Below are positions 1 through 55,257 of a stretch of 64,000 nucleotides of DNA, piece after piece. Within the stretch, counting starts at the first letter, position 1. Every line of letters begins with the position of its first letter. Origin of the DNA: Candidatus Tagabacteria bacterium (lineage in GTDB: Bacteria > Patescibacteriota > Minisyncoccia > GCA-002779875); NCBI GenBank assembly GCA_963820595.1, contig CAWGAO010000007.1:113071-177070 (forward strand), in the 5' to 3' direction. The notes below the pieces were generated by a model. The model saw nothing but the letters and a program-made list of their open reading frames with translations. It searched no databases and had not been told where the DNA came from. Position numbers and translations under genes: made by a program.

Positions 1-1958
1 AACATATTGCCGAAGTTGGAACTAAGGCCCATCATTATGTATTTCATTATGTTCTGAAAAGTTTTTCTTCCCTCCACGACGCCGTCTTTCAAAACTCTCA
101 AGCTTTTCCGGATTAAAATGATGTCTGCCGTTTCTTTCGCGACGTCGACGGCGTTACTGACCGAAATGCCGATATCGGCAACCCTTAGCGCCGGCGCATC
201 GTTAATCCCATCGCCCAAATAGCCGACGGCGTTTCCGCTCCTTTTAAGGATTAAAATAATCCTTTCCTTTTGTTCTGGCGTAACGCGCGCAAAAACCGTT
301 ATATCTTTTACCTTTTGGCTCAGCTCGTCATCGCTCATTCGATTAAGTTCTTCACCGATTATAATTTCGCCATAGACTATATTGATTTCGGCGCATATTT
401 TTTTCGTCAGAACTTCGGAATCGCCGGTCAGAATCTTCAGCTCTATGCCCAAATCCCCAAGCTCGTCAACCGCTTCCTTAACTCCTTCTTTCGGCGGGTC
501 GAGAAAAGCCATAAAGCCCAAAAAGATCATTTTTTCCTCGTCTTCCTTTTTATAAACATCCTTCGCCGATGAATCGATTTCTTTTATTGCCAATGCCAGC
601 ACCCTAAAACCGTCGGCGCTCAACTCCCTGAATTTATTTTCGAAAATACGCTGCGACGCCGCGTCAAAATCGAACGTCTTGCTGTCGCCGTCGCTCTTTG
701 AATAAAATTTTGATATTTTGAAAATTTCTTCCGGCGCGCCTTTTGTAATCAAAATTCTTTTCCCCTCTTCTTCCGTCACTATCGAGTCTCTTTTTCTGAT
801 AAAATCGAATGGAATTTCGTCGATTTTTTTGTATCCCGAAACATCCAGTTTTCTGTACTCTTTAATGGCGGTCTCAAGCGGTTTTTTGGCACCGGTGTGG
901 AAAATACTGCTTACATAAGCGTACAGAAAAGTTTTTTCCGATTCGTTTCCGAAACCGTCAACATGCCTGATTAAAACTATTTTATTCTGCGTCAGCGTGC
1001 CGGTTTTATCGGTGCAAAGTATGTTCATACTGCCGAGACTGTGAATGGAAGAAAGATTTTTTACGATTACCTCTTTTTTCGCCATCCGGACGGAACCGCG
1101 GCTCAAAGAAACCGACATAATAACGGGTAAAAGTTCGGGCGTAAGGCCGATTGCGATAGCAAGAGCGAAAATAAACGATTCCAGCCAACCGCGATGACCC
1201 AAGGCGTTTGCGACGAAAACAAAGCTGACCATAATAAAAGTCAGCTGTAGCATAAAGTAACCGAATTTCCTGATGCCTATTTCGAATTCCGTCAAAGGAG
1301 GCGTTTCCTCCAGTTCTTTGGCTATCCTGCCGAACTCGGTTTGTGCTCCGGTTTTTTTAACCAACACTTTTGCATAACCGGAAACGACGCTCGTCCCCAT
1401 AAAAATGGCATAGCCGCTTTCAAGAGACACGTCTTCCGAAATTACGTCCGATGGCTTTGCGACTTTTTCCGCCGGAAAAGATTCGCCGGTAAGAGCCGCT
1501 TGATTAAGGAAAAAATCGTTTGCTTCCAAGATTACGCAATCCGCCGGCACGATGTCTCCGGCGGAAAGAGCAGCCAAATCGCCCGGGACAATCTCGTCCA
1601 AAGGAACCTCTTTTGACCGGCCGTCTCTCGTAACGGCAACGGTTGTAATAACTTTGGCAACAAGTTTTTCGACGGCTTTCTCCGATTTATAAGTGTTGAT
1701 AAATTCAAGAAGGCCGGAAACAAAAACCATCAGTAAAATAATCAGGGCGTTCGTGCGCTCGCCCAAAAAAAATGAAACTATCGAGGAGAAAACCAGGATA
1801 ATTAAAAGCGGATTGGTAAATTTTTTGGCAAACGCGATAAGCGGTCTTATTTTCCGCCGCTTAAAAACAATATTTTTCCCGTATTGCTTCAGGAGACTCG
1901 CCGCTTCCTTAGAGGAAAGTCCCCGGTAAATTTTTTGCTCTTTATTATTTTGCCTCAT
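1..1958 (-). CDS. P-type cation-transporting ATPase (MgtA/PMCA-like); 3' end runs off the left edge
   Basis: Absent from the ORF track because no stop lies in the window. My minus-strand translation from ATG 1958 reads MRQNNKEQKIYRGLSSKEAASLLKQYGKN..., with TGES, the DKTGTLT phosphorylation motif and the GDGINDAPAL hinge motif (near 180-215). Confidence 0.9.
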   Translation of the reverse strand, partial: MRQNNKEQKIYRGLSSKEAASLLKQYGKNIVFKRRKIRPLIAFAKKFTNPLLIILVFSSIVSFFLGERTNALIILLMVFVSGLLEFINTYKSEKAVEKLVAKVITTVAVTRDGRSKEVPLDEIVPGDLAALSAGDIVPADCVILEANDFFLNQAALTGESFPAEKVAKPSDVISEDVSLESGYAIFMGTSVVSGYAKVLVKKTGAQTEFGRIAKELEETPPLTEFEIGIRKFGYFMLQLTFIMVSFVFVANALGHRGWLESFIFALAIAIGLTPELLPVIMSVSLSRGSVRMAKKEVIVKNLSSIHSLGSMNILCTDKTGTLTQNKIVLIRHVDGFGNESEKTFLYAYVSSIFHTGAKKPLETAIKEYRKLDVSGYKKIDEIPFDFIRKRDSIVTEEEGKRILITKGAPEEIFKISKFYSKSDGDSKTFDFDAASQRIFENKFRELSADGFRVLALAIKEIDSSAKDVYKKEDEEKMIFLGFMAFLDPPKEGVKEAVDELGDLGIELKILTGDSEVLTKKICAEINIVYGEIIIGEELNRMSDDELSQKVKDITVFARVTPEQKERIILILKRSGNAVGYLGDGINDAPALRVADIGISVSNAVDVAKETADIILIRKSLRVLKDGVVEGRKTFQNIMKYIMMGLSSNFGNM

Positions 1959-4550: not shown

Positions 4551-4799
4551 TTATCGGCTTCCTGCTTTGTTTCCTGTTGAGTCCTTATTCAAAGAATCAA
4601 GATTACCGCACAGCGCGGATAATCCTGAAAACAACCTTTTCCATGTTTCCGCCAGCTTTTCATTCGTCTGCCGGCTTTTCTCTTTGTTTATTTTTAGTTC
4701 TTTTTCCCTTTGGCGGCATTCCGCAATCAAATCCTTGAATTTCTCCCTCTCTTGAGGCAAAAGAGTCCCAACGTATTCATCGATGGTTTTAGCTTTCAT
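4551..4799 (-). CDS. hypothetical protein (82 aa)
   Basis: ORF in the same operon, charged and coiled-coil-like. Confidence 0.5.
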   Translation of the reverse strand: MKAKTIDEYVGTLLPQEREKFKDLIAECRQREKELKINKEKSRQTNEKLAETWKRLFSGLSALCGNLDSLNKDSTGNKAGSR

Positions 4800-4826
4800 T
4801 TTTTCCTCCTTACTTGTTTTATAAAG

Positions 4827-4937
4827 TTATCTCAGCGCCGCGGAGAAAAATAATCCGGCAAAAAAACCTACAACAAGTCCAACGACAAAAATAACCAAAC
4901 CTGCAACGACGCAAATACCCCAACCCCAAATCGGCAT
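4827..4937 (-). CDS. small hydrophobic membrane peptide (36 aa)
   Basis: My translation is MPIWGWGICVVAGLVIFVVGLVVGFFAGLFFSAALR. A purine-rich SD (AAGGAGAAGAAA) precedes it. It is below the ORF-track size cut-off. Confidence 0.4.
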   Translation of the reverse strand: MPIWGWGICVVAGLVIFVVGLVVGFFAGLFFSAALR

Positions 4938-4965
4938 TTTCTTCTCCTTTCTTCCTCTCCTTTCC

Positions 4966-5087
4966 TTATTTTTTCCCGACGTAAAGTCGGGATCCCGACT
5001 TCTTTATTTTAAAAGAACTATTAATGAAGCGTCGGGACAAAGTCCAAAATACCAAAAACAGGATAGCACATCTTGCTATCCTGTCAA
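4966..5087 (-). promoter_or_regulatory. Copy A of the duplicated ~120-nt promoter/hairpin/leader module
   Basis: In minus sense: TTGACA, then 16 nt containing the hairpin GGATAGCA-N5-TGCTATCC, then TATCCT and a T-run. The leader then carries GTCCCGAC ... GTCGGGATCCCGAC TTTAC GTCGGGA AAAAAA followed by the SD. It aligns with 30708-30828. Confidence 0.55.
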
Positions 5088-5117
5088 TCCTGTCAAAGAC
5101 CGGATATTCGCGAAATT

Positions 5118-6863
5118 TTATGACGGCATCTTTGCCGATGCCGATTGAAGTTCCCAAAAATGCCGGTAAATTCCGTCTTCAAGCCGCATCAGCTCTTCAT
5201 GAGTTCCCATCTCCAGCACTTCTCCTTTTTCCAAAACAATGATTTTATCGGAATGCTGAATAGTGCTCAGGCGATGAGCAATGACAAAAGTAGTCCTTCC
5301 TTTGATAAGCCTCATCAAAGCTTCCTGCACCAGCTTTTCCGAAACCGAATCGAGCGCCGAAGTCGCCTCATCCAAAATCAGAATTTTCGGGTTTCTTAAA
5401 ATCGCTCGGGCGATGGCAATGCGCTGTTTTTGGCCGGTAGAAAGTTTGATTCCCCTCTCGCCGACTACCTGATCGTATTTCCTCGGAAATTTTTCGATAA
5501 ACTCGTGGGCATTCGCGGCTTTCGCCGCTTCCGCAATCTGTTTGTCGGTAGATTCCAAATTTCCGTAACGGATATTATTTTTAATCGTATCATTAAAAAG
5601 CAGCACTTCCTGAGGCACGAGAGCCATCTGCCGCCTCAACGCGAGCAAATCAATCTTCCCTATATCAACGCCGTCAATCAGGATTTGGCCCTTGGTCGGC
5701 GTAATATATCTTCCGATAAGGTCAACCAACGTGGTTTTCCCCACTCCGCTTTCGCCGACAAGCGCTACGGTTTGGCCGGGCAGAACTTCAAAAGAAATAT
5801 TTTTAAGAATCATCTGGCTCTTTTTGTAGGCAAAGTCGGCGTCTTTAAAAACAACTTTGCCCTTAATTTCCATTTCTATCGCGTGAGGCGCGTTTTTTTC
5901 CGGAGGAATATTATAGTAGCTCATCGCCCGCTTAAAAGAATACATCCCGCTTTTTGCCATGCGGTACTGGTTCGCCAATTGCGACAAAGGAGCCGTTAAA
6001 AGACTTGTGTAGCCGACAAACATTATCAGTTTTCCTGCGCTTAATTGTCCGGCGCGAAGCATCAAAATTCCCACGCTCAAAACCGCGATGAAACTCAAAG
6101 TAAAAATAATTCTTTGCCAAGCGTTCATTTTCAGCCAAACGAAACGCCATTTTTCATAGATTCCCCCGGCCCAATTAAAATTTTTAACGTTTCTTTTGCG
6201 TTCAAATTCTTCGGCGGTCGACGATTTTACTGTTTGAACGTTTAAAACCGAGTCCCATAAAACTCCGTAGGATTTTTCCCATCCTCTATGCAGTAATTTT
6301 TGCGTTTCAATTATGTACTTCGAATAAACAAGCGTCACCAAAACGTAACCGATGCTCGTAGCCACTAAAATCAAACTTAACCTCCACTCGACGACCAGAA
6401 GAATCACAAAAGCCACAAAAAAGGAAAGAAGCGACGGCAAAAAAGAAAAAAGGGTATCATCTATAAGATTGAAAAGGTCATTATCAATGCCCCTGTCAAT
6501 CCTCCTCATTATCTTGCCCATTTTTCTCGCCTTATGAAATTTGAGCGGCAGATTAATGAGATGATGGAATATATCAACCATTAAATCGTTGGTAACCTCG
6601 ATGGCGATTTCGTAAGATTGGCGTTGGCTGTAACGCGAAAGAAATTCGTTTAAAAGAGATAAAAACAGCCAAAGAGAAATAAATCCTAAAATTATTTTTA
6701 GCTGGGAATGGGGAGCAATGGCGACATCAACCAGATGCCCGTAAATATAAGGTATAAACGACAAAGCGACTGCGGAAACGAGTGCGCTAACGGCGCCGAA
6801 ATAAATTCTTTTCCGGTTCTTGATTCTTGAAAAAATAAATTTAAATTCTTTGGGAATAGTCAT
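5118..6863 (-). CDS. ABC transporter, fused permease/ATPase (MsbA-like exporter)
   Basis: Six-TM N-terminal half followed by Walker A GESGVGKTT, signature LSTGQKQR and Walker B ILILDEATSALD. Confidence 0.9.
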   Translation of the reverse strand: MTIPKEFKFIFSRIKNRKRIYFGAVSALVSAVALSFIPYIYGHLVDVAIAPHSQLKIILGFISLWLFLSLLNEFLSRYSQRQSYEIAIEVTNDLMVDIFHHLINLPLKFHKARKMGKIMRRIDRGIDNDLFNLIDDTLFSFLPSLLSFFVAFVILLVVEWRLSLILVATSIGYVLVTLVYSKYIIETQKLLHRGWEKSYGVLWDSVLNVQTVKSSTAEEFERKRNVKNFNWAGGIYEKWRFVWLKMNAWQRIIFTLSFIAVLSVGILMLRAGQLSAGKLIMFVGYTSLLTAPLSQLANQYRMAKSGMYSFKRAMSYYNIPPEKNAPHAIEMEIKGKVVFKDADFAYKKSQMILKNISFEVLPGQTVALVGESGVGKTTLVDLIGRYITPTKGQILIDGVDIGKIDLLALRRQMALVPQEVLLFNDTIKNNIRYGNLESTDKQIAEAAKAANAHEFIEKFPRKYDQVVGERGIKLSTGQKQRIAIARAILRNPKILILDEATSALDSVSEKLVQEALMRLIKGRTTFVIAHRLSTIQHSDKIIVLEKGEVLEMGTHEELMRLEDGIYRHFWELQSASAKMPS

Positions 6864-9069: not shown

Positions 9070-10631
9070 TTAATACGAAGGTATTTCTTCCCCGAATACT
9101 TCGCGGAGAATGCCGCATATTTCACCCACGGTGGCGTAAGATTTCACTGCCTTCAAAATGACCGGCATCAGATTTTTTTCCGAACAAGCGGCTTCTTTCA
9201 GATTTTCGAGGGCCTTTTTGACTTCCCGATTGCCTCTTTTCTTCTTGAGCGCTTTCAATCTTTTAATTTGTCTTTCTTCCGTCTTGGGATCTATTTTAAG
9301 TAATTTGCAAACAGGCGGCTGGTCGGTAATATATTTATTCAATCCCACTACGACTCTTTGGCCAGCATCAGTTTCTTTCTGATACTGATATGCCGATTTT
9401 GAGATCTCGGATTGAGGAAAGCCAGCCTTGATGGCCGCCACCATCCCGCCCTTGGCTTCGATCTTTTCGAAATATTCGTAGGCTTTTTTCTCCATCTCGT
9501 CGGTTAAAGCTTCGATATAATAAGAGCCGCCAAGCGGATCAACTGTTTCAGTTACCCCGCTCTCGTAGGCGATTATCTGCTGGCTTCTTAGAGCAACGGT
9601 TACCGCTTCTTCCGTCGGCAGACAGCGGGCCTCATCATAAGAATTGGTGTGTAACGATTGAACTCCGGACAATGTGCCGGCCAAGGCCTGCAATGCAACC
9701 CGGACAATATTGTTCAGGGGTTGCTGGGCGGTCAGAGTGCAACCAGCTGTTTGACAATGACAGCGCATCAGCCAAGACCTGGGGTCTTTCGCTCCGAATT
9801 TTTCCTTCATCACTTTAGCCCAGATTCTTCGGGCCGCTCTGATTTTGGCAATCTCCTCAAAAAAATTATTGTGAAGATTGAAAAAGAAAGACAGCCGCGG
9901 AGCGAAGGAATCGACGGGAAGGCCGCGGTCGATGCCCGCCTTAATGTAAGTCATGCCGTCGGCCAGGGTAAAAGCCAGTTCCTGGGCCGCGGTGGCCCGG
10001 CTTCGCGGATATGATAGCCGCTGAAATCGAAATCGTGTTCCAATCGGGGAACATATCGCGAACAATAATCAAAAATATCGACGATTATTCTTAAAGAAGG
10101 TTCGGGCGGAAATATAAAAGTGTTTTGGGCAATGTACTCTTTCAGAATATCGTTCTGGATGGTCCCTCCTATTTTATCGAGAGCTACTCCCTGCTGTTCG
10201 GCTACGGCAATATACATCGCCAAAGCAATGGCCGCGGTCGAATTGATGGTCATCGAAGTAGTGACGCCGTTGGCGGCGGTGCTGTCGAGATTGATTCCGT
10301 CGAAAAGAATTTCGAAATCTTTCAAGGAATCGACCGCCACGCCGTCTCTTCCGACTTCGCCCTCGGATAAAGGATAATCGGAATCAAGCCCCATTAGGGT
10401 CGGCAGATGGAAAGCAACACTTAATCCGGTTTCCCCTTGAGACAAAAGGTATTTGAACCTTCTGTTCGTTTCTTCGGCCGAACCGAAGCCTGCAAACTGC
10501 CGCATCGTCCAAAGACGACTGCGATACATATCTTTGTGGATTCCTCTGGTAAAAGGAAATTCACCGGCTTCTCCTAAATCTTTTTGGTAATCTATACCGT
10601 TTAAATCTTCGGGTGTATAAATTGTTTTCAT
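9070..10631 (-). CDS. methylmalonyl-CoA mutase family, large catalytic subunit, with a frame break near 9994-10001
   Basis: [21 protein letters not shown], then ...SGYHIREAG (frame 1) and [14 protein letters not shown]...HTNSYDEA (frame 2). The break is in a G run (GCCGGGCC where GCCGGGGCC is expected). The start is the ATG at 10631, behind AGAGGAGGAG. Confidence 0.9.
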
Positions 10632-10708
10632 TTCTCCTCCTCTTTTCAATGTGCTTGAAGTGCTTTTTGAATTTGTTTCAGAGTACTAAAAATCTTCCAT
10701 ATTGTCAA

Positions 10709-10934
10709 CCCCGTTAGAAGTTCAGCCAAGATTATCATAACATAATCTTTTTACTGCGAACTCGCCTTACCCCGTTAGAAATTTTCAGCGCGTATAAATT
10801 TTAAATTATATTGTAGCCGAAGGCGGATTCGCTCGACAAATAATGCGATACCAAGAGCCCTTGTTGAATTTCTAACGGGGCTTACGGCTTTGTTTTCGAA
10901 TAAAATATAGGCTAGATGAAAACTTCTAACGGGG
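10709..10934. repeat. Nested inverted repeats of CCCCGTTAGAA
   Basis: Forward copies at 10709-10720 and 10770-10781, reverse copies at 10870-10880 and 10924-10934. The same motif pair recurs at 44524-44617. Confidence 0.7.
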
Positions 10935-10938
10935 TCAA

Positions 10939-10977
10939 TAAAAAATCGCCCTACTAACATGTAGTATGTAGGGCGAT
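10939..10977 (-). terminator. Rho-independent terminator after the oxidoreductase operon
   Basis: Stem ATCGCCCTAC/GTAGGGCGAT. TTTTTTA follows in minus sense. Confidence 0.6.
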
Positions 10978-10989
10978 AAAATTAATTTG

Positions 10990-11748
10990 CTATTCTTCTT
11001 TGCCTTTAAAAAATACGCCTAAATGCGGCGTGGATGAAACTGGCGTTTCTGCCAGCCTTAGCGCCGCGTTTATGTCACTCGAGTCATGGCTTTCCAGATA
11101 GACGCACCGCGATTTTATTTCCTCAAATAACTCTTTGCGGTAGGTCGCGCAAAGAGTCAACACGCTAATGAAGGAAAAGCCCTTGTGCCTGATTCCTTCA
11201 ACGATAAGATTTGTGAGATGAGGCACATCCGTCGAGATTCCCTGAGCAATGAAACTTCGGCGGTCCCGATACTGTAGGCGATCATAGCGAAGACCGGATC
11301 TACCGGCGCGCAACCGCTTTGACTGCCATCGGCATCAATGAAGAGGCGTGGTCGGGCTGAAGTTTGACCTTTAGTCAAGCCGTAAACGAAATTGTTCACC
11401 ATAATGCAGGTGATATCGATATTCGCATCTGACGGCGTGAGGCATGTGGCCAGCGCCAATACTGAAAAGGTCTCCATCGCCGCCTATGACAAGAATCGTC
11501 AATGACGGGTTTGCCAGTTTTGCTCCTTCGGCAACCGGAACCGACCGGCCGTGAAGAAGATTAAAACCGAAAGTATTAAGGTAACCGGTTATTCTTGCGG
11601 AACATCCGATTCCGGAAAAAATTCCGATTTTATGATTTGGAATTTCAAGATTCTCAAACGCTCTGACGATTGCCGCCAATACTCCAAAATTTCCGCAGCC
11701 CGGACACCAGATGGGCTTGCGTTCGGTTAGGTATGTTTTTTCTTTCAT
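10990..11748 (-). CDS. korB: 2-oxoacid:ferredoxin oxidoreductase beta subunit, with two frame breaks (near 11421-11440 and 11243-11260)
   Basis: Three ORFs in three frames together give the KorB pattern: WCPGCGNFG...GGDGD..SIGAGH..HAVR / NIDITCIMVNNFVYGLTKGQTS / FIAQG...HKGFSFISVLTLC. Confidence 0.85.
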
Positions 11749-13475
11749 TTTTCCAACCTCACAAATTCTTCAATCGGTTTGACTAATTCCGAAATATTAA
11801 ACGGTTTCGCTCCCGATCTTTTGTAAAGCACCGTATTCTTCGGCACATCGATTTGCGAACGCAGGTAATGGTAAAATTGGCCCGAAGAGTTCATCTCTAT
11901 TACTAACAAGCTCTCGGCCGACCGGACGAATTCTTCGACTCTGTCGGGCAAAGGATAGATCAGTTCCGGGACACAGACAGCCACTTTATCTTTCAGGCCG
12001 GCTTCTTCCACGGCCGCCATAACCGCTTGGGCAGTAGAGCCCCAGGCAATGATTCGGTTGACCGAATCAAGATTGCCAAAAAGCTTCACCAAATCATTTC
12101 TTCGTTTGACCGGCTCCAGTTTCCTTGAGAGTTTTTCGTGCCATTGTTCGAGCGTTTTAAAATCGGGCTCGTGCGAACCGTCGGCAGTATGAGAAAGACC
12201 CGCTGTCTGGTAAACGCCGCCCTCGTCTCCGATACTCGACATTGGTGAAACGTAATCACCCGTTTCTTCGTATCGGCGATAGTTATCGCGTTCCGCTTCC
12301 GACGGCTTTTTCCTTCCTATAATCGGGTATTCCCTTTTCAAAAAATCATCATCAAGCGATACAGGAGTTTGGCTGAGCAACTGATCGGACAAAATTATCA
12401 CCAGCGTCTGGTAATACTCGGACAAGTTGAACCCTTTAATGACCAACCGATAAGCACTTTCCACATCGTAAGGAGACAGCACTATTCTCGGTGCGTCCCC
12501 ATGGCCTCCAAAGACGGCATGATAAAGATCGGATTGCTCCGTCTTTGACGGAACGCCCGTGGAAGGTCCGGCTCTTTGTGCGTCAACTATAACCATCGGC
12601 ACTTCCAAACTGACGGCCAAAGCCATTGCCTCGGTCGCCAGACTCATTCCCGGCCCGCTGGTGGCTATTAATGATTTGACGCCGGCCAGCGATGCGCCGA
12701 TACCGTTGTTAACGGCGGCGATTTCATCTTCCGATTGCCGGAAAACTCCGCCGATTTTTGAAAGTTTCTCCGCCATTTCTTCCATTATTTCCGTGGCGGG
12801 CGTAATCGGATAGCCGAAGAAAGCCCGGCATCCCGCGTATATCGCCGCCATAACAATCACTTCATTGCCGGAAAGTATGATTTTTGAAGATGGCGCTTGA
12901 GGCGAAACCAATTCTATTTTCGGCAAACCGGAAAATTCGGCTAACAGATTTTTTCCGCTTTCAAAAACCGGAAAAGTTTTTTTCAAAAGGCTGAATTTTG
13001 CGTCGCCTTCGATGACAGTTTTTATTTTTTCCAACGGCAAACCAAGAATCATTTCCGCTAAAAGACCGAGCGCAAGAACATTTTTGTTCCTTCGCTCGCC
13101 GGTCACCCTGACGCTTATTTCCGTAAACGGGATTCGGAAAGAATTCTTCGGAAGAATAATTTCTCCGACTGGTTCATTCTCATACATAACGATTGTGTCT
13201 TTATCAATAGGCAATTCGTCCCTGAATTCAAAGTATTTTTCCCAGTTAAAACACACCAGAACGTCCAATTCATCTTTTGGCAAAGACGGTGTTAAAGAGT
13301 TGAGGTTCAATTTAACCGCCGAACCCCCTCCTCTTATTTGCGCCCCGTAATATTTCGGCATTTGACCGAAATATCCTTGCGACGCAGCCAGACGTTGGAG
13401 CAGACTCCCCAAAACGACTACGCCGTCCCCTCCCGCTCCGACCAGTCCAATAGTCAAATTATCGGTTTTTTCCAT
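11745..13475 (-). CDS. korA: 2-oxoacid:ferredoxin oxidoreductase alpha subunit (fused gamma-alpha type)
   Basis: 576 aa. The N-terminal gamma-like domain (GAGGDGVV) is followed by the alpha domain (GYPITPATEI...GPGMSL). It overlaps the beta-subunit start by 4 nt. Confidence 0.9.
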   Translation of the reverse strand: MEKTDNLTIGLVGAGGDGVVVLGSLLQRLAASQGYFGQMPKYYGAQIRGGGSAVKLNLNSLTPSLPKDELDVLVCFNWEKYFEFRDELPIDKDTIVMYENEPVGEIILPKNSFRIPFTEISVRVTGERRNKNVLALGLLAEMILGLPLEKIKTVIEGDAKFSLLKKTFPVFESGKNLLAEFSGLPKIELVSPQAPSSKIILSGNEVIVMAAIYAGCRAFFGYPITPATEIMEEMAEKLSKIGGVFRQSEDEIAAVNNGIGASLAGVKSLIATSGPGMSLATEAMALAVSLEVPMVIVDAQRAGPSTGVPSKTEQSDLYHAVFGGHGDAPRIVLSPYDVESAYRLVIKGFNLSEYYQTLVIILSDQLLSQTPVSLDDDFLKREYPIIGRKKPSEAERDNYRRYEETGDYVSPMSSIGDEGGVYQTAGLSHTADGSHEPDFKTLEQWHEKLSRKLEPVKRRNDLVKLFGNLDSVNRIIAWGSTAQAVMAAVEEAGLKDKVAVCVPELIYPLPDRVEEFVRSAESLLVIEMNSSGQFYHYLRSQIDVPKNTVLYKRSGAKPFNISELVKPIEEFVRLEK

Positions 13476-19409: not shown

Positions 19410-19463
19410 TTTTGCGAAGTTCATTGAAATTTCTCTAAAAAATCGTTGATTTCGGAGGTTAAA

Positions 19464-20747
19464 ATGAGTCTGTTATTAGGTAAAATATGCATTAGCGATG
19501 TCCAATTTTCCAGAAAGAACGGCATAAAAGACGGCATCCTTTTCATTAAAAAAGAGGATTTGATAAAAAGGGTTTCCTTTGAAGACCCAAGATTAAATTC
19601 CGTGCGAATAGAAATCGCGAGGCCCGGAGAAAAAACGAGAATTATTCCGGTAAAAGACATCATAGAGCCGAGAATCAATCTGACGGCAAAAAATAGTTAT
19701 TTTCCGGGAGTTCTTACGCCGCCAAAAAAAGTTGACCGCGGAAGAACCAACGCCCTTAAAGGAATTTCTGTTGTCACCTGCGGACAGATTATCGGAGCCC
19801 AGGAAGGAATACTGGATATGAGCGGCCCGGGAGCCGAATACTCTCTTTTTTCGAAATTGATAAATATCGTTGTCACGGCCGATGTTGTTAAGGATTTGGA
19901 AAAACATCAGCATGAAGAAGTTTTAAGGCTGCTCGGCTTAAGAACGGCTGCCTTCATCAGCGAAATTGCAAAAAAAACAGAACCGGATGAATTGGAAATA
20001 TTCGAAAAAATAAATCCGGCGGAAAAACATTATTGCGAATTGCCCAGGATTGTTTATATCTACCCACTTCTAAGCCAAGGGTTGCTCCATGATACTTATG
20101 TTTACGGAGTGAACTCCCAAACAATGGACCCCGTCTTCATCCAGCCGATAGAAATCATGAACGGAGCCGTTGTCAGCGGAAATTGCGTTTCCGCGTGTGA
20201 TAAAAACGTAACTTATCACCATCAGAATAACGCAGTTATCCGCGAGCTTTACAAAGCCCACAGGAAAAAAATAAATTTTTCCGCCGTCATTCTGACGCCC
20301 TTAAAAACTTCCCAAGGCGAGAAAGATTTATGCGCCCAAAAAACCGCCGACTTAATCGCTCTTATCCGACCCGATGGCGTAATCCTCTCGAAAGAAGGAT
20401 TCGGCAATCCGGACGCGGATTTTATGTCCATCGTATCAAAAGTTGAAGAGATGGGCGTAAAAACCGTCGGCATAGTCGATGAATTCGCCGGAAGTGACGG
20501 CGCTTCACAGTCTTTGGCGGACAGCCATCCGTCGGCAGATGCCATCATTTCCGTAGGCAACGCCAATGAATTGATTATTCTTCCGCCTATGGAAAAAACC
20601 ATCGGCGATGCGAGTTTACTTACCAATCTGGCGGGCGGCTATCCGAAAAGCTTAAAGCCGGACGGAAGCATAGAGATAGAATTACAGGCGATTATCGGCG
20701 CCACCAATCAGCTGGGATCCGAAAGACTTTCGGCAAAAGAGGAATAA
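19464..20747 (+). CDS. grdE: glycine reductase complex component B, GrdE proprotein (alpha/beta subunits)
   Basis: ARPGEKTRIIPVKDIIEPR...QEGILDMSGPGAEYSLFSK...HQHEEVLRLLGL parallels clostridial GrdE. The start is the ATG at 19464, behind GGAGG. Confidence 0.9.
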   Translation: MSLLLGKICISDVQFSRKNGIKDGILFIKKEDLIKRVSFEDPRLNSVRIEIARPGEKTRIIPVKDIIEPRINLTAKNSYFPGVLTPPKKVDRGRTNALKGISVVTCGQIIGAQEGILDMSGPGAEYSLFSKLINIVVTADVVKDLEKHQHEEVLRLLGLRTAAFISEIAKKTEPDELEIFEKINPAEKHYCELPRIVYIYPLLSQGLLHDTYVYGVNSQTMDPVFIQPIEIMNGAVVSGNCVSACDKNVTYHHQNNAVIRELYKAHRKKINFSAVILTPLKTSQGEKDLCAQKTADLIALIRPDGVILSKEGFGNPDADFMSIVSKVEEMGVKTVGIVDEFAGSDGASQSLADSHPSADAIISVGNANELIILPPMEKTIGDASLLTNLAGGYPKSLKPDGSIEIELQAIIGATNQLGSERLSAKEE

Positions 20748-20748
20748 A

Positions 20749-22062
20749 ATGGAAAAGAAAAAATTCACCGTTGTTCATTATCTGAACCAGTTCTTCGGCG
20801 GAATCGGCGGCGAAGACAAAGCCGATTTTGCTCCTGCTTACGCGGACGGCCCCAAAGGACCGGGAATCGCGCTCCAAAAACTTTTTGCCGAACAGGCGGA
20901 AATTACAGCCACGATTATCTGCGGCGACAATTATTTCGCCGAGCATGCGGAAAAAAGTCTTGAGGAAATTATTTTTCTGACACGGAGCTTTAAACCGGAT
21001 TTGGTTATCGCCGGACCGGCGTTCAATGCGGGACGATACGGCATGGCTTGCGCCGAAGTTTGCAAAGCGGTAGGCGAAAAATTGAAAATACCTGCGATTA
21101 CCGCCCTATCTCCTGAAAATCCGGCAGTGGAAATTTATAAAAAGTCCGTCTTTTTTATCGTTCCGACAAGAAATTCCGTAGTCGGGATGAACGATGCTTT
21201 AAAGGGCATGACTCGTCTTTCACTTAAACTTCTTAATAATGAAACATTGGGTCCTGCCGGGGAAGAAGGCTATATTCCGAAGGGGTTAAGAAAAAATTGT
21301 TTCGTTGAAAAAACCGGCGCCGAAAGAGCGGTTGAAATGCTGATTGAAAAAATCAGCGGCGGCAAAATTAAAACCGAACTTACGTTGCCCGTCTTTGATA
21401 AAGTCAAACCCCTTCCTCCGCTCGAAGATTTGTCGAAAATAAAATTATGCCTGATAACCTCGGGCGGGATAGTGCCCAAAGGCAATCCCGACATGATTTC
21501 TTCTTCGAGCGCTTCCAGGTTTGGAAAATATAGCATTGAAGGATTGGAAACCATTTCCAGTTTGACGCATCAAACATGCCACGGCGGTTATGACCAGACT
21601 TACGCCAACGAAAATCCGAACAGAGTTCTGCCGCTCGATGTGATGCGGGATTTGGAGCGCGAAGGAATAATCGGCAAACTTCATGATTTTTACTACGCCA
21701 CTGTGGGCAATGGCACTTCGGTAGCCAATGCGAGAAAATTTGCCCAGGAAATTGCGGCCGAACTCAAAGAAGCCCAGGTCTCCGCGGTGATTCTCACGTC
21801 CACATGAGGAACATGTACTCGTTGCGGGGCAACGATGGCGAAAGAATTGGAAAAAAATGGAATCGTTACGGTTCATATCTGCACCATTGTTAAAATTTCG
21901 AAAACGGTTGGCGCGCCAAGAATTGTGCCAGCCGTAGCAATTCCCCATCCCCTGGGGAATCCGAAAATTTCCGAAAGCGAGGAAAAAAATCTTCGCCGGA
22001 AAATCGTGGAAAAAGCGCTTCTTGCTCTTGCCACAAAAACAGAAGAACAAACAATATTTTAA
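20749..22062 (+). CDS. grdB: glycine reductase selenoprotein B (component B gamma), with TGA 21805-21807 read as selenocysteine
   Basis: ORFs 20749..21807 and 21835..22062 are in the same frame. The junction reads AVILTST-U-GTCTRCGATMAKE..., the conserved GrdB Sec site. The joined length is 437 aa. Confidence 0.9.
21819..21835 (+). promoter_or_regulatory. Candidate SECIS hairpin of grdB
   Basis: Stem TCGTTGC/GCAACGA with a GGG loop, starting 11 nt after the UGA. Confidence 0.55.
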
Positions 22063-29272: not shown

Positions 29273-30680
29273 TTAGTATGCCCTCCTCAAAACTCCCATT
29301 GTGACGTGAGACCCAACGCCGGCGTGAGAAACCCACGCTGCCTGCCTGGCATTCGGCACCTGAAGGCTTTTCCAATCTTCCGGCTTTCTCCTGGGTTTTG
29401 CCGCGAATTCTCCTTTATCCGCCCATTTATCCCAAATTTTCGGGTCGCCGTGGAATTTGTTATACTTTTGCTGCAACTGCCAGAGACATTCCACGCCCTG
29501 AAAAATTCCCGTTGCGCCAACCGCGTGCATCGTTCCCAAAAGACCGCCGGAAAGATTAGATGGGCACTTGCCTCCATAGTAGGCATCTCCGGACTCGATA
29601 TATTCGGCCTCTTGGCCATAGGGTCTAAGACCGATATCACCGTAAGTCTGGATATCAGAAATTGTAAAAGCGTCGTGAAGCTCCACAAGGTCAAAATCTT
29701 CGATTGGGTTTTGAATCCCGGCCATTCGATAAACAAGATAGGCGGCGAAACGAGCGGCCAGAAAACTTTCGAATCCCGGCCACCGATCATCTATTCTCTT
29801 TCATTTCTTTTAAAAGTTTGTCATACATTCCGGGTTCCTCGTGGGGCAAAAGCAGAATTTCCATATGGCGCCTGTCGGCCACTCGTAAGGTATGAGTGCC
29901 GCCGGCGATAAAAAGCTCGCATGGTTTATCGGTCAGTTTATAGGCCATTTCTTCTGAACACAAAAGCATACAAGCCGCGCCAACGCTCATGGCGCAGCAT
30001 TCTAAAATCCTTAATGGATCGCAAATGACCTTTCCGGAAAGGACTTCTTCAACTGTATGTTTCCCCGCCTGCTGGGCATACGGGGAATAATATGCGTAGC
30101 CGCGATTTTTCACGGCCACCTTTGCTCTGGTTTCTTCGGATAAATTGTATTTCCAGGAAAAACGCCGAGCCATCGGCGCGTAATATGAAGCGTAGATTCG
30201 GGCCAGCCGTGTTTCAAAATCTTTGCAGGCCGCTTGTGCAATGTAGAGATTGCCGGTCCGCGTATCAACTTCGTCCATACGCTCCCAGCCCATTGCCAAC
30301 GCAACATCAGCATACCCGCTCGCGATAGCCATTGCGGCATTCATGACTGTACTGCCGCCGGTTGCTCCTCCGGTTTTAACGCCGATGTTATAAAGAGGGT
30401 CGAGCCCGAGATAATCATGAATTTTTGCTTCGCCAAGAAGCTGATCTTGAAAATGATCAGCGAAGGCGCCATAAGCGGCAAAATTCAGAAAACCTTTTAC
30501 GTCTTTCGGCGAAAGCCTCAAATCGTTTTCTTCAAGCATCTGGCGAAATGCCATCATGCACAACTCTTCCAGTTTGTATTCCGGGAACTTCTTCCGATAG
30601 GCCGTCAGTCCGCCGGCCACGGCGTAAACAGGTCTTTGCCACCTTGGAATCCTCAAATTTCCCTTGCTAAACTTAATCAT
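29273..30680 (-). CDS. thiolase-fold acyl-CoA acetyltransferase (SCP-x/archaeal type), with a frame break near 29790-29803
   Basis: 29787..30680 is the N-terminal domain and 29273..29725 is the C-terminal domain (VELHDAFT...GGLLGTMHAVGATG). The C-terminal frame is open back to KRIDDRWPGFESFLAARFAAYLVYRMAGI, starting right after a TGA, so the switch lies in GAAATGAAAGAGAAT. Confidence 0.85.
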
Positions 30681-30707
30681 TTTTTCCTCCTTGTCTCTGA
30701 GTTTTCT

Positions 30708-30828
30708 TTATTTTTTCCCGACATAAAGTCGGGATCCCGACTTCTTTATTTCAAAGGACTATAAACAGAGCGTCGGGACAAATTTCAAAATCCGAAACAA
30801 AAATAGCACTCTTCGTGCTATTTGTCAA
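30708..30828 (-). promoter_or_regulatory. Copy B of the duplicated ~120-nt promoter/hairpin/leader module
   Basis: In minus sense: TTGACA, then 17 nt containing the hairpin AATAGCAC-N5-GTGCTATT, then TATTTT and a T-run. The leader then carries GTCCCGAC ... GTCGGGATCCCGAC TTTAT GTCGGGA AAAAAA followed by the SD AAGGAGG and the thiolase ATG. Confidence 0.55.
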
Positions 30829-30845: not shown

Positions 30846-31014
30846 CCCCGCCTTAATTTTACAATCCAATATATCGGCTCGACGCTTCGCGCAAAAGGCC
30901 TGCCTGCCGGCAGGCAGGGGTGCGGCTATTCGCCGCCCGCATCTCGCGACAGGCAAATAAATCTTTTAATTATAAAAATTTAGATTACATGTGGACGGTA
31001 AAATTAAAGCGGGG
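30846..31014. repeat. 17-bp inverted repeat enclosing a 20-bp GC palindrome
   Basis: CCCCGCCTTAATTTTAC (30846-30862) pairs with GTAAAATTAAAGCGGGG (30998-31014) with one mismatch. The central perfect palindrome is CCTGCCTGCCGGCAGGCAGG (30899-30918). Confidence 0.6.
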
Positions 31015-44667: not shown

Positions 44668-45429
44668 TTAATCACGAACTAGAAACATATTGGTTTGCTC
44701 AACAACAGTCCTCGCCCTTTCTTCCGTCGCAAAATATTCCCTGATACAATTGCCGCAATGCCGGCAAGCCGATGTTCCTTTTTCTCCTTCGGTTTTTCCG
44801 CAGGAATGAACGAATTTGTTATATTTATATCGCGCCATAATTTCTTCCCAGGCAGCCGTGGTAATCGCCCAGTAAGAATTTAATGTTCTCTTTCGAAAAA
44901 TATATTTTCCTTCATGGCCTTCGGGAATTTTTCCTTCAAAATATGCCATAAAAGTAAGAACAATTGGAATTTCGCGAGCTGAATAATACTCCACGACTTT
45001 ATCCACTAAATCCAAATTCCAAGCGTTAACGCGAACCCTGACAAACATCAAATTGATAGGTATCGGGTCCAAAAGGTAAGCGTCGATGTCCGTCATTCTG
45101 CCGGGGTTAACTGTTAAAACAACCGGGGCGTCGAATTTTTCCAAATCCTTGGGAATGGCGGTGTTATAGAACTTCATCTCATAATCCCGTGTTGCCTCAA
45201 TAACCTTCTTTCTTTGAACATTGCTGTCGTTTCCGTCATTCACTCTGACGATTCTGCCTTTTGCCATTTCAGCGCTCGGCATATTGGGTAAATTTTCTTT
45301 AAACGGCTCGAGATATGAACGGCCCGACTGGAAAAAACAATCTTCGCATTTGTTGGGACAAGTGCCTTTTTGGGGAATCGCCGTAATAATTCCGCTTCCT
45401 TTTGTCTTGGGGTTTTCTTTATAGGTCAT
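44668..45429 (-). CDS. hypothetical protein with a CX3CX2C (radical-SAM-like) cysteine motif
   Basis: GTCPNKCEDCFF near the N-terminus, and a C-terminal CRHCGNC. The start is the ATG at 45429, behind GGAGGAG. Confidence 0.5.
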   Translation of the reverse strand: MTYKENPKTKGSGIITAIPQKGTCPNKCEDCFFQSGRSYLEPFKENLPNMPSAEMAKGRIVRVNDGNDSNVQRKKVIEATRDYEMKFYNTAIPKDLEKFDAPVVLTVNPGRMTDIDAYLLDPIPINLMFVRVRVNAWNLDLVDKVVEYYSAREIPIVLTFMAYFEGKIPEGHEGKYIFRKRTLNSYWAITTAAWEEIMARYKYNKFVHSCGKTEGEKGTSACRHCGNCIREYFATEERARTVVEQTNMFLVRD

Positions 45430-45501
45430 CTTTCTCCTCCTTTTTGTCAAAAATCAAACCATTTAAATCTTACAAAAATTATAAAAATAACGCAACCCCC
45501 A

Positions 45502-45540
45502 ATACCAAAACGGCCCGCTGTTGGCGGACCGTTTTGGTAT
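45502..45540 (-). terminator. Long hairpin downstream of rpoC (weak terminator call)
   Basis: 12-bp stem ATACCAAAACGG/CCGTTTTGGTAT. No clean U tract follows on the minus strand. Confidence 0.4.
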
Positions 45541-45553
45541 TTAATTTAATTTT

Positions 45554-48500: not shown

Positions 48501-49288
48501 CCGGCACGCTCCATTGCCTTAATAAGACTGATTTGTTTTAGAAATTTTTTCTGCAATTGAGGATTTACCGTATGCTCTGCCTCGTCGGTAAGCGTTTTTC
48601 TAAGTTCCGCAAGGTCTAACTTCTTACATATATTATAGAGGGCTTCGGAACCTATTTCCGCTTCAAACACATCTCCGTATTTAAGGCTAAGACGGTGATA
48701 CTCGATTTCGCTAAATACTTTATTCAGGTGCAGGTCGTTAATCTCGTTTTTTGATTTATTAAAAGCTTGTTTAAGCGCGGTTTTTTTCTCTTTTTCGGTG
48801 AGGTTTTTTGATTTTGCCTTGTATTCTTTATCCAAATTCTGAAACATCTCCATTTTGGCTTTCTCGTTTACTTTCGTAATAATGTAACTGGCAAAATAAA
48901 TCACCTTTTCCAGCTCCGGAACGGAAAGATTTAAAAGGAGACCGAGAACCGAGGGAATGCCGCGGAAAAACCAAATATGGGAAACGGGTGAAGCCAAAGC
49001 AATGTGACCCATCCGTTCCCGCCTTACGATGGAACGCGTCACTTCAACCCCGCATTTTTCGCAAACAATTCCCTTATATCTGATGCGCCGGTATTTTCCG
49101 CAATAACATTCGTAATCTTTTTCCGGCCCGAAAATGCGCTCGTCAAAAAGGCCGTCCCTCTCCGCGCGCTGGGTTCTATAATTGATGGTTTCCGCTTTGG
49201 TCACTTCGCCGTGGGACCATGACAAAATCTTCTCCGGCGAAGCGAGTTTTAACATTATAGATTTGAAATCTGTAACTTTTATATCCAT
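45554..49288 (-). CDS. rpoC: DNA-directed RNA polymerase subunit beta', with two frame breaks (near 47005-47017 and within 46180-46260)
   Basis: 47000..49288 carries the zinc ribbon [20 protein letters not shown] and NADFDGDQM. 46180..47010 continues as [14 protein letters not shown]...[13 protein letters not shown]. 45554..46183 carries the conserved C-terminus ([11 protein letters not shown]...[17 protein letters not shown]). Confidence 0.95.
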
Positions 49289-52800: not shown

Positions 52801-53066
52801 AGTTTGTCAAAATATAGTCGTTCGTCTGAAGCAAACTTCTTATTTTGACAAAAAAATACCTAACAAGCAAAAACGCCCTTTCTAAACTTTTTTCCCAAGG
52901 GAATCCAGATAATTTATTTTTATTTACTTAAATATGGTGAAATAAACCACCCAATATTTAATAATAAATCTATTTAATCCGGACGGCAAGCCCCGCCCAC
53001 TACTAAAAATGAAATATAACAAATCTTCTAAAAATTGTCAAATTTTATCGACCTCCTTCCGTCTTC

Positions 53067-53083
53067 CTAAGGTCCGACCTTGG
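53067..53083. repeat. REP palindrome copy 1 (imperfect)
   Basis: CTAAGGTC C GACCTTGG. Confidence 0.7.
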
Positions 53084-53862: not shown

Positions 53863-55257
53863 TTAAGGGGTGGTTGACGCGGTTTCTGTGGTAGTAGTTG
53901 CCACGGTTTCCGGTGTAGTAGACACCCCGACGTCCGGTGTCGGGGTAACGGGAATGGTGGTTGAAATAGTTTCCGGCGTGGTGATCGGAGTTGATGTTGC
54001 TGTTAAAATACCAGACGCACCGACGTCCGGTGTCGGGGTAACGGAAGTGATGGTTGAAATAGTTTCCGGCGTGGTGGTCGGAGTCCCGACCTCTCCAAGC
54101 GTCGGGATTGATGATGTAGAATTCTCCGGAAATTCCAAGGCGCTGACAGTGCCAGCTAATGAACCAATGCCAGCCAGCGCTTCGGCTCCACACTCGCCCG
54201 GAGTAGATTTCAAAATTCCGGATTCAAGATAAACGCAAGCAGGTTCGCCGGACAATTTGTCAAAAATAGTGATGCCAGTCGGCTTTTCTTTTGAACCCAC
54301 AACCAGCTGTTCTTTAGCCTGCACATAGTCGGCCGTCATCTCGTGAGTAGTAATCGCGTCGGCGATAAATCCTTTCGCCTGAATCACGCCGTCGGCAATA
54401 ATAATGCCGGCGGTTTTAAATTGCTCCAAAATCCAGTTAAACGCTTGGGATATAACGCTGTCGCTAGTAGTAGCGTTTCCAAGGTCCGACCTTGGAAAAG
54501 TGAACGGAGTGCTGGAGGCCATAATATTTTCCAGATTCGCGACTCGCAATTCCAAATCCGCGATTTTTGTTTCGCTGTCTGTTATTCTTTGTTCGTGATT
54601 TTTGATTATGGGTTCGTCTTCCAAGGCAAGCCGGTACTGGCTTAAATTAACAAATACTAAAATCTTTCCGACGGCATTTCTATCGTAAGTTATTGTCCCA
54701 TCAACTGCTACTTGTCCTGAGCCTGTCGAAGGAAAATCTTCCAAGGCAATGCCGACTGTTTGTTGAGAAGACGTCCCCGCTCTCATTCCCACGCCTGAAG
54801 TATTTGAAACAGTAATCCTGTCCCCTATTTTGATTTCTCCTCCGTCAAGATTAACCTTGACCGGAACGCGGCCGGAAAGAGCCACGGGTATAGTGGTGGC
54901 TGTTAATGAACCGTTTCCAAGGTCCGACCTTGGAAAAGAATTTCCCAAAAGAACGCCGGGTTTTTCGGAAACAACGCCGATAATCGAGTCTGTGGAAGAA
55001 CCGGCTTTTTCAATGAAAACTTTGTCGCTTCCAAGGTCCGACCTTGGAAAAGCAACAGGGGCGACTATGTCGCCAGCTTCAAGACTGATGTCATTTGTCG
55101 GATAGTTTTCCGCGACATCGGAAGAAACAGTATTAAAAGATGAAGCGGAAACGCTACCGCCAACGTCAACATTTCCGCTGGCGAAAACGCCGCCGTTGGC
55201 AAAAACATCGCCGTTAACATCTAACTTATAACCCAACGGCGAAGTCGTTGAACCCAT
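53863..55257 (-). CDS. fibre-like surface protein with a coiled-coil and a Thr/Pro-rich C-terminus; carries three in-frame REP insertions
   Basis: 464 aa. The N-terminus ...KLDVNGDVFANGG...SDVAENYP resembles the repeat modules of the upstream fibre genes. It has a coiled-coil (IADLELRVANLENI) and three FPRSDLG motifs. Confidence 0.7.
   Translation of the reverse strand: MGSTTSPLGYKLDVNGDVFANGGVFASGNVDVGGSVSASSFNTVSSDVAENYPTNDISLEAGDIVAPVAFPRSDLGSDKVFIEKAGSSTDSIIGVVSEKPGVLLGNSFPRSDLGNGSLTATTIPVALSGRVPVKVNLDGGEIKIGDRITVSNTSGVGMRAGTSSQQTVGIALEDFPSTGSGQVAVDGTITYDRNAVGKILVFVNLSQYRLALEDEPIIKNHEQRITDSETKIADLELRVANLENIMASSTPFTFPRSDLGNATTSDSVISQAFNWILEQFKTAGIIIADGVIQAKGFIADAITTHEMTADYVQAKEQLVVGSKEKPTGITIFDKLSGEPACVYLESGILKSTPGECGAEALAGIGSLAGTVSALEFPENSTSSIPTLGEVGTPTTTPETISTITSVTPTPDVGASGILTATSTPITTPETISTTIPVTPTPDVGVSTTPETVATTTTETASTTP
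53880..54075. repeat. 93-nt tandem repeat (two full units plus a partial one) in the 3' end of the 464-aa gene
   Basis: The units carry the hairpin palindrome CCCCGACGTCCGGTGTCGGGG (53925-53945; second copy at 54019-54038) and encode a Thr/Pro-rich TTPETIST..VTPTPDVG sequence. Confidence 0.6.
54476..54498. repeat. REP palindrome copy 4 (inside a coding sequence)
   Basis: TTTCCAAGGTC C GACCTTGGAAA, read as FPRSDLG in ORF 53863..55257. Confidence 0.85.
54914..54936. repeat. REP palindrome copy 5 (inside a coding sequence)
   Basis: TTTCCAAGGTC C GACCTTGGAAA, read as FPRSDLG. Confidence 0.85.
55029..55049. repeat. REP palindrome copy 6 (inside a coding sequence)
   Basis: TTCCAAGGTC C GACCTTGGAA, read as FPRSDLG. 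Confidence 0.85.

Follow-up and report, generated by a model that had tools for sequence, protein, structure and literature searches.

A duplicated putative promoter cassette in a Candidatus Tagabacteria contig carries a double-hairpin repeat shared by many classes of Patescibacteria

In a 64,000-nucleotide stretch of a Candidatus Tagabacteria contig (the window), two different minus-strand operons, one containing panB and the other a thiolase gene, are each preceded by a copy of one module, composed of a promoter-like site with an overlapping palindrome (here termed H0), a double hairpin with TCCCGAC/GTCGGGA stems (the element) and an A-rich leader. We put at about 0.7 the probability that this module is a propagated promoter cassette carrying a selfish hairpin repeat, similar to repetitive extragenic palindromic (REP) sequences or Rickettsia palindromic elements (RPEs), that is co-transcribed within the 5' untranslated region (UTR). 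The duplication, the existence of a repeat family, the discrete insertion of the element relative to an empty site, the range of its contexts and its absence from orthologous loci were all observed. The leader is not a riboswitch-like regulator, nor is it a dedicated control element shared by both operons.

The two modules (copy A, 5087-4935, 153 nt; copy B, 30828-30678, 151 nt; minus strand) have 82.4% identity, counted from the -35 hexamer through the ATG, so that the duplicated minus-strand module of ~120 nt proposed in an earlier reading of this DNA (the original prediction) is real and lies where it was placed; a repeat search of the window returned the pair as family D16 (79 nt, 81% identity). 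The near-identity claimed for the 45 nt closest to the genes was borne out as well, a single base differing between the copies over ~44 nt (AAATAAAGAAGTCGGGATCCCGACTTTAYGTCGGGAAAAAATAA). The window contains exactly two instances of the perfect 14-nt palindrome GTCGGGATCCCGAC, and allowing up to two mismatches gives four matches, against 0.16 expected from shuffles; ATAGCA-N-TGCTAT is found in the 64 kb only at the two module sites (0.01 expected). Read in minus sense, each module comprises H0, an element of 63-64 nt, and an A-run with a leader rich in Shine-Dalgarno (SD) motifs. Between an ABC-transporter gene (5118-6863) and copy A lie 30 nt; the copy is followed by open reading frames (ORFs) of 36, 82, 429 and 70 aa, with panB after them, and copy B is followed by the thiolase gene and one for a DUF35/ChsH2-like protein. 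The operons had thus been described largely correctly, except that panB and the thiolase gene are each split in two: panB consists of two overlapping ORFs, and the thiolase lies in pieces of 297 and 167 aa, its orthologues being single proteins of 456 aa.

A conserved leader had been noted in both copies and is indeed present, but its two adjacent hairpins, with four 7-mer half-sites, had been overlooked. In the modules the element has the consensus TCCCGAC-(30-31 nt AT-rich loop)-GTCGGGA followed at once by TCCCGAC-TTTAY-GTCGGGA, 63-64 nt in all; it can be described as two back-to-back units of the form TCCCGACG-loop-GTCGGGA, mutually inverted. Both units are predicted to fold, as two neighbouring hairpins, at -25 to -26 kcal/mol (z = -4.6). 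In copy A the loops are a 31-nt AT-rich sequence (hairpin 1) and TTTAC (hairpin 2), and the element alone is 87.5% identical between copy A (64 nt) and copy B (63 nt). Read in sense, the hairpins are not followed by a U-run; read antisense, on the plus strand, a hairpin is followed by CTTTATTTT, and this reading was flagged as terminator-like at both copies. The ends of the long loop are conserved among long forms (GC[AT]C... and ...ATAA[AGT]GAAG). We considered an internal sigma-70 promoter within the AT-rich loop and rejected it, since by inspection its -10-like strings have no -35 at a usable spacing.

Copies of this element are widespread. The original prediction had suggested building a covariance model and looking for further copies, and these turned up at no fewer than 119 genome loci and in six metagenome contigs. 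The genome loci come from a search of a one-genome-per-species collection with the exact pattern GTCGGGATCCCGAC-N3-8-GTCGGGA (21 specified bases), which returned at least 119 loci where we estimate that about 1-2 would occur by chance; the taxonomic range that follows describes this sample, and the search is biased towards exact stems. Among the matches listed, almost all sources are metagenome-assembled genomes (MAGs) of the Candidate Phyla Radiation (CPR, or Patescibacteria) from many classes (Saccharibacteria, Nomura-, Gottesman-, Roizman-, Adler-, Terry-, Falkow-, Doudna-, Magasanik- and Buchananbacteria, Paceibacterota and others), together with two Omnitrophota MAGs; about six G+C-rich matches from outside the CPR have no first arm and look fortuitous. 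Several MAGs contributed 2-5 of the listed loci each. The majority of the listed copies belong to a short form (36-45 nt, loops 4-8 nt), and about 30 are long forms whose first hairpin has an AT-rich loop of 15-45 nt. Throughout, the inner core CCGAC/GTCGG of the stem does not change, substitutions in the outer pairs are compensated and the loops are variable, and related hairpins with swapped outer pairs (CCCCGAC/GTCGGGG, CTCCGAC/GTCGGAG and TTCCGAC/GTCGGAA) keep both the core and the typical loops. A covariance model built from 18 long-form elements (R1) recovered two full copies and one degenerate copy in the window, and nine further copies in 683 kb around the seed loci, or roughly one per 30-75 kb.

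The window itself is from a CPR bacterium, in agreement with this distribution: its RpoB is 88-89% identical to that of Candidatus Tagabacteria, and its thiolase 82-85% identical to Candidatus Portnoybacteria proteins. No match to the element or to the H0 pattern was found in a collection of viral contigs, and phage were on this ground rejected as the vector. Our literature search found no paper containing the exact 14-mer GTCGGGATCCCGAC and no description of CPR palindromic repeats; the family is apparently undescribed.

Comparison with the closest relatives separates the element from the promoter in front of it. A 32-mer specific to the window's long form identified six metagenome contigs, and the eight close long-form copies have elements that are 79-100% identical set in flanks that cannot be aligned. 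At two of these loci (L120 and L122) the whole module, including H0, stands before other genes, while at two more (L121 and L124) the same long form lies behind different promoters, the L122 and L124 elements being 100% identical; the element is therefore independent of H0. Before four different genes (copies A and B, L120, L122) the modules are 76-89% identical over ~150 nt, from -35 to ATG. Copy B and L120 have their leader in common right up to the ATG, which indicates that the propagated unit is a complete cassette reaching from promoter to ribosome-binding site (RBS).

Orthologous operons supply the empty site. Two orthologues of the 429-aa gene (L126, 74% identity; L127, 81%) have H0 directly upstream and lack the element, and L126 also keeps the gene order of the window (a 43x-aa ORF, a small ORF and panB). 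In L126 the sequence AAAAAAGAAGGGAGG...ATG directly adjoins H0 (TTGACA-AGATAGCATAATATGCTATCTTG-TTTTTGGCATTTGGACATTG) and the TCCCGAC element is missing between them, so that a filled junction ...TTTG/element/AAAAAA... can be set against an empty one, ...ATTG/AAAAAA.... Elsewhere in the family the consensus of the flanks is AG^...^CT, compared with TTTG^AAAA here. Because H0 runs straight into the A-run and SD in both L126 and L127, the element is a discrete insertion, extending exactly from TCCCGAC to GTCGGGA, without target duplication; no flank is duplicated between empty and filled sites, and the terminal inverted repeats with target-site duplication of a MITE (miniature inverted-repeat transposable element) are not found. 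Upstream of five orthologous thiolase genes (L128-L132, 81-87% identity) neither H0 nor the element is present, from which it follows that the module before the window thiolase is a lineage-specific acquisition. Seven of the eight close long-form copies lie in sense between a sigma-70-like -10 and an SD with start codon, a bias that selection against the terminator-like antisense reading can explain. As a separate observation, the L128 thiolase gene is preceded (at about 9760-9930) by a tandem palindromic unit of ~70 nt (GGGCTTGCCCGGTAGTAGAAGTTGCAC...GTGCAACTTTCACTACCGGGCTTG), that is, by a different hairpin repeat at the position equivalent to that of the window module.

The contexts of the element extend well beyond 5' UTRs and include the interior of essential genes. 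Among 48 short copies, 20 are embedded in open frames of 150 aa or longer that continue as coding sequence to either side; the four such copies that were checked all fall within Pfam domains (LepA GTP_EFTU, SecA_DEAD, ComEC DUF4131 and FAD-oxidase_C), and in-frame, stop-free copies would encode peptides such as VPTEVGIPTxVGK. In L010 a long-form element (933-991) sits within a 23S rRNA gene (1-1402, minus strand) between flanks that pair with each other, and resembles an expanded rRNA helix tip. Other copies are found 20-140 nt upstream of rRNA genes (23S in L048 and L017; 16S in L110), beside tRNAs, around rplJ and at the rpsC/rplP junction. The ORF family adjoining the element in L078, L102 and L106 is the ribosomal-protein-L10-like rplJ, and Rfam searches at these three loci found neither RNase P nor an L10 leader, which speaks against a place of the element in RNase P P3. 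In the groES leader of L123 (6806-6930, minus strand) the order is a sigma-70-like promoter, a canonical CIRCE (controlling inverted repeat of chaperone expression; TTAGCACTC-N9-GAGTGCTAA), the TCCCGAC element and groES; the element tolerates a place inside this known regulated leader. Across the family it occurs in both orientations, its insertions into protein domains are at non-homologous positions, and its placement near the same gene (lepA, the rplJ region) differs from genome to genome, which means that these sites are not orthologous.

At five loci the element lies within a duplicated tRNA 5' fragment, directly upstream of a small GIY-YIG ORF that is in turn followed by the intact tRNA. 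The layout at such tRNA sites is a duplicated 5' fragment (positions 1-10/12), the element, the D-loop part of that fragment, a small GIY-YIG ORF or a short AT-rich spacer, and the intact tRNA, and it is common to different tRNA species. The window, too, encodes a small GIY-YIG nuclease (52526-52870, minus strand), located between a RAYT-like gene (REP-associated tyrosine transposase, described below) and rpoB (49305-52517), in the usual place of rplL.

These results bear directly on the claim that both operons share one control element in the conserved leader. That leader proves to be a single copy of a repeat present at 119 or more loci, coding sequences and rRNA included; it is missing from the same promoter module in two relatives and from five thiolase orthologues; and its invariant inner stem core and variable loops are the opposite of what a ligand-binding RNA presents. 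The pan motif (RF01749), which had been named for comparison, matched neither across the window nor in a permissive local scan: at the gathering score Rfam returned only tRNA and SECIS_4 for the whole window, and in region 4700-5300, with E-values up to 10, three weak and unrelated matches, none of them relevant.

H0 is a second, distinct layer of the module. Its hexamers are of sigma-70 type, with a spacing inside the 16-18 nt expected of such promoters, at both copies, where a promoter is accordingly predicted: the TTGACA, spacer of 16-17 nt and TATCCT or TATTTT reported originally were recovered in our scan (10/12 and a TG-extended -10 at each copy). Spacer and -10 together make up the palindrome, a hairpin of 9-12 bp with a T-run behind it, whose compensated outer pairs, also described before, were found at both copies. 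A G+C-containing hairpin and T-run located 3' of a co-directional gene is in addition a predicted intrinsic terminator, and in copy A it is terminator-like for the ABC-transporter gene ending at 5118 while overlapping the promoter spacer and -10. The same architecture recurs in L120, L122, L126 and L127, the -35 being perfect or nearly so and the -10 TG-extended, and in 4/5 cases (copy A, L120, L126, L127) H0 lies no more than 30 nt past a co-directional stop codon. Changes in the arms are compensated, G:C having become A:T in L126 and the stem having shifted in copy B. Compensated arms, T-run and position after stop codons together suggest that H0 fits a combined terminator and promoter, and the earlier suggestion that the hairpin acts as a terminator, as a promoter palindrome or as both is made plausible by the hairpin, T-run and hexamer scans; H0 could also be an operator common to several genes. 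A CIRCE/HrcA reading of H0 was rejected, its spacing and sequence being unlike those of the real CIRCE in L123. At copy B, H0 is 330 nt beyond the previous ORF. About 70 nt upstream of that copy, at 30897-30920, we noted CCTGCCTGCCGGCAGGCAGG, a perfect palindrome rich in G+C with CCTTTTG behind it. This is probably where transcription of the upstream gene really terminates, in which case copy B would not need its H0 hairpin as a terminator.

Coordinates and supporting values are collected in the table.

Table. Positions of the module parts and element copies in the window, and of the tRNA-fragment layout in other loci
Feature	Position	Strand	Support
Copy A promoter-like site: -35 TTGACA (5087-5082), 16-nt spacer, TG-extended -10 TATCCT (5065-5060)	5060..5087	-	hexamer scan 10/12
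Copy A H0 hairpin (predicted): GACAGGATAGCA-AGATG-TGCTATCCTGTT + T-run	5047..5085	-	12 pairs; -18.3 kcal/mol, z = -5.5
Copy A element, long form, 64 nt; arms 5037-5031, 4999-4993, 4992-4986, 4980-4974	4974..5037	-	covariance model R1 87.2 bits; -25.3 kcal/mol, z = -4.7
Copy A A-rich leader with SD-like GGAG runs, to ATG (4937) of 36-aa ORF	4938..4973	-	A-run + SD also directly after H0 in L126 empty site
Copy B promoter-like site: TTGACA, 17-nt spacer, TG-extended TATTTT	30800..30828	-	hexamer scan 10/12
Copy B H0 hairpin (predicted): AAATAGCAC-GAAGA-GTGCTATTT + T-run	30793..30823	-	-11.5 kcal/mol, z = -4.8
Copy B element, long form, 63 nt; arms 30778-30772, 30741-30735, 30734-30728, 30722-30716	30716..30778	-	R1 81.8 bits; -26.0 kcal/mol
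Copy B A-rich leader + SD (AAGGAGG), to thiolase ATG (30680)	30681..30715	-	near-identical to leader of unrelated gene in L120
Third, degenerate element copy: TCCCGAC-GCTTGGAGAG-GTCGGGA then CTCCGAC..., in frame inside ORF 53863-55257	54059..54112	-	R1 26.6 bits, E = 8e-5
tRNA-fragment layout	L045 1733-2140; L072 4548-4965; L040 3380-3537; also L039, L042, L117, L015, L026, L077		

Several known systems resemble parts of the module. Like REP sequences, with their mosaic (BIME) and paired (REPIN) arrangements mobilised by RAYTs, the element is a short, G+C-rich, multi-copy palindrome usually present as an inverted pair; it likewise has a compensated structure, would be co-transcribed with its neighbours and inserts without target duplication, and the window encodes a RAYT-like protein with flanking palindromes of its own, as REP/RAYT systems do. 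REPs inside ORFs have been documented, and REP units have an unpaired GTAG or CGTC head at one end (PMC3733652). The element differs in having no such head, its units ending at the foot of the stem with CGTC at the stem-loop junction, and in being often intragenic (20/48 short copies). It differs further in its low copy number, in the sharing of 21 or more nucleotides by a superphylum instead of one genus, and in that no RAYT flanked by TCCCGAC, as in a REPtron, was seen in the loci examined.

RPEs are reportedly selfish repeats that lie in frame in protein genes as well as in RNA genes and intergenic regions; RPE-1 is said to measure ~100-150 nt, and RPEs to be confined to one genus. We know of no transposase for them. 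The element resembles RPEs in occupying reduced, host-dependent bacteria and in having in-frame, stop-free copies (by predicted translation) in protein genes and a copy in a 23S rRNA gene, and differs from them in its length of 36-64 nt and its presence in many CPR classes. A putative mobile promoter has been defined as an upstream region of 50-100 nt with at least 80% identity before non-homologous genes (Matus-Garcia et al. 2012, PMC3488235). By this operational definition the cassette qualifies, its copies before four different genes being 76-89% identical over ~150 nt, although, in addition, a hairpin repeat has been inserted into it and its palindrome is terminator-like. The Neisseria repeats known as Correia elements (CREE/NEMIS) are small, co-transcribed palindromic repeats that lie between promoters and genes and can alter expression; they have terminal inverted repeats, a TA target duplication and promoter hexamers of their own, and are not known outside one genus. 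The position of a hairpin-folding repeat between promoter and gene is the same here, whereas none of those terminal repeats, TA duplication, promoter hexamers or one-genus range applies to the element. With the pan motif the module has in common only its position upstream of a panB-containing operon; there is no covariance-model match, and architecture and conservation pattern are different.

We also looked for an enzyme that might move the element. The window contains a Y1 (IS200-like, RAYT-like) transposase gene (53067-53798, minus strand; PF01797, 1.3e-11) with the motifs YHIYDRG, HFHLL and YIHLNP, whose product scores 52 bits against NCBIfam REP_Tyr_transpos, below the model cutoff. This gene is flanked, and interrupted in frame, by another palindrome, CCAAGGTCCGACCTTGG / TTTCCAAGGTCCGACCTTGGAAA, of which there are six copies between 53062 and 55052; three of the six lie in frame in the 464-aa ORF 53863-55257. 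From these in-frame copies we conclude that the genome hosts hairpin repeats that enter coding sequence. A phmmer search of the collected loci found four RAYT homologues, none flanked by TCCCGAC. RAYT linkage of the element was consequently rejected for these loci, the window gene and its four CPR-locus homologues all being flanked by other sequences; a more distant cognate gene may still exist in the genomes concerned.

Taken together, these observations suggest the following course of events. H0, a lineage-specific unit of ~55 nt with its A-rich SD leader, would have been copied before unrelated genes, where it may end the upstream transcript and start the next one. Into this cassette, between ...TTTG and AAAAAA..., a double hairpin of 63-64 nt would then have been inserted, and H0 and element may have spread to the thiolase operon as one unit. 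The element itself would be a non-autonomous selfish repeat, maintained by its structure and persisting where it is harmless: in 5' UTRs, rRNA and tRNA leaders, rRNA helices and, in frame, protein surface loops. Both window copies would form the first part of their mRNA as two stable 7-bp G+C-rich hairpins that leave the RBS free, with a probably neutral or mildly stabilising effect. Sense would be the sole orientation tolerated here, as the inverted element, a hairpin with a T-run, would be expected to terminate transcription. A Y1/HUH-type (RAYT-like) or some other enzyme may move the element in the form of single-stranded hairpin DNA.

Several points weigh against this account. No transposase is linked to the element, as judged from the window RAYT-like gene and its four CPR-locus homologues; the copy number is modest, at about one per 30-75 kb, and 21 or more nucleotides are identical across very distant CPR classes, both of them unusual for REPs, as these are normally lineage-specific, and both possibly a sign of a conserved host factor and a function instead; and the sense, promoter-to-RBS placement of 7/8 close relatives is compatible with a selected role in the 5' UTR. 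Element length is divisible by three in 17/20 copies within ORFs against 10/17 elsewhere, a weak difference given that 36 and 39 nt are the usual sizes in the family.

One way to accommodate such conservation is that the double hairpin is a signal, in RNA or single-stranded DNA, for a conserved CPR factor, with a possible role in stabilising mRNA 5' ends, in RNase processing or as a ribosome-associated site, and that it was selected in both 5' UTRs. The spread of one sequence over many CPR classes, the conserved ends of the long loop, the sense orientation of 7/8 close relatives in 5' UTRs and the recurrence of copies near translation and stable-RNA genes (rRNA leaders, rplJ, rpsC/rplP, tsf, lepA, groES) all speak for this. 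Housekeeping genes, however, make up the greater part of CPR genomes, so that copies would be expected near them anyway, and avoidance of the terminator-like reading accounts for the orientation bias; moreover, the element is missing from orthologous sites, its position near the same gene (lepA, rplJ region) changes between genomes, and it is found in either orientation, and where it enters protein domains the positions are not homologous. We consider a selected signal of this kind unlikely. A speculative combination, which we would not expect but take seriously, is that dedicated machinery recognising folded hairpins keeps the element identical superphylum-wide; this would be a new transposition or homing system, perhaps tied to the small GIY-YIG nucleases whose genes immediately follow the element where tRNA fragments are found, or to a RAYT-like Y1 enzyme, with the element co-opted as a portable leader of 5' UTRs and stable RNAs.

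Regulation through H0 is a separate matter. Its palindrome (...GATAGCA-N5-9-TGCTATC...) covers spacer and -10, where repressors classically bind; three genomes retain it at the orthologous operon, it is found again ahead of four further genes, and it occurs nowhere else in the 64-kb window, as might be expected if one repressor served both operons of the window (those with panB and the thiolase) together with the remaining cassette genes. Compensated arm changes (L126, copy B), on the other hand, reflect the requirement of a hairpin and not of a protein half-site, the T-run is always 3' of the palindrome and in 4/5 cases follows a co-directional stop within 30 nt as in intrinsic terminators, no regulator gene is associated, and the downstream genes have no recognisable common function. 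Such an operator is doubtful in our view; it would be compatible with a propagated cassette carrying a selfish repeat, and the shared control element would then, tentatively, be H0 and not the TCCCGAC leader. That the leader is instead a riboswitch, of pan-motif or other type, sensing a metabolite related to CoA or pantothenate and so linking panB with the thiolase, is very improbable: the gene theme (panB and an acetyl-CoA-type thiolase) fits, and four half-sites allow alternative pairings in principle, but Rfam gave no relevant match in the whole window (gathering score) or in 4700-5300 (E up to 10), the conserved loops and covarying stems of such RNAs are replaced by free loops and an invariant core, no U-run follows the hairpins in sense, the same element sits within ORFs and rRNA, and it was not retained at the orthologues of the panB operon (L126, L127) or the thiolase (L128-L132). 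The same absence of a sense U-run, the invariant core, the ORF and rRNA copies and the missing orthologous copies led us to reject an attenuator built from the four half-sites. Finally, with two full copies in the window, a recent local duplication of one promoter region without any wider family might be entertained; full modules before other genes in two metagenome contigs, and the element at 119 or more genome loci, contradict this, which is equally far-fetched.

Some features of the window lie outside this argument. Several genes look broken (2053-2995, 29287-30680, 44668-49288 and 9070-10065), panB and the thiolase gene being in two pieces each, rpoC in several, and the methylmalonyl-CoA mutase covering only profile positions 213-512, which points to assembly-error frameshifts or pseudogenes. 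Regions 19446-21845 and 9070-13475 encode glycine reductase (GrdB, with SECIS_4 at 21808-21845), methylmalonyl-CoA mutase and pyruvate:ferredoxin oxidoreductase, a metabolism unusual for CPR that reflects either a notable lineage or a chimeric contig. Between 55700 and 62500, very large minus-strand ORFs contain dispersed and tandem repeats (D1-D14), one of these ORFs having a Peptidase_S74 (endosialidase chaperone) domain; they look like repetitive surface or tail-fibre-like proteins.

Much of bacterial diversity belongs to the CPR, whose members have tiny genomes and for the most part have not been cultured. What is unusual about the element is its identical sequence throughout a superphylum, since its behaviour, like that of REP dimers and RPEs, belongs to kinds already known. 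Recognising the repeat would improve the annotation of spurious inserts of 12-15 residues, rRNA expansions and false "conserved leaders", and would provide a handle for finding the enzyme that mobilises it. The reuse of one promoter-to-RBS cassette before unrelated operons also offers a candidate strong-promoter part for organisms in which genetic tools are lacking. A CPR-wide repeat of this type would parallel the Rickettsia "selfish DNA in protein-coding genes" in a second reduced, host-dependent group of bacteria.

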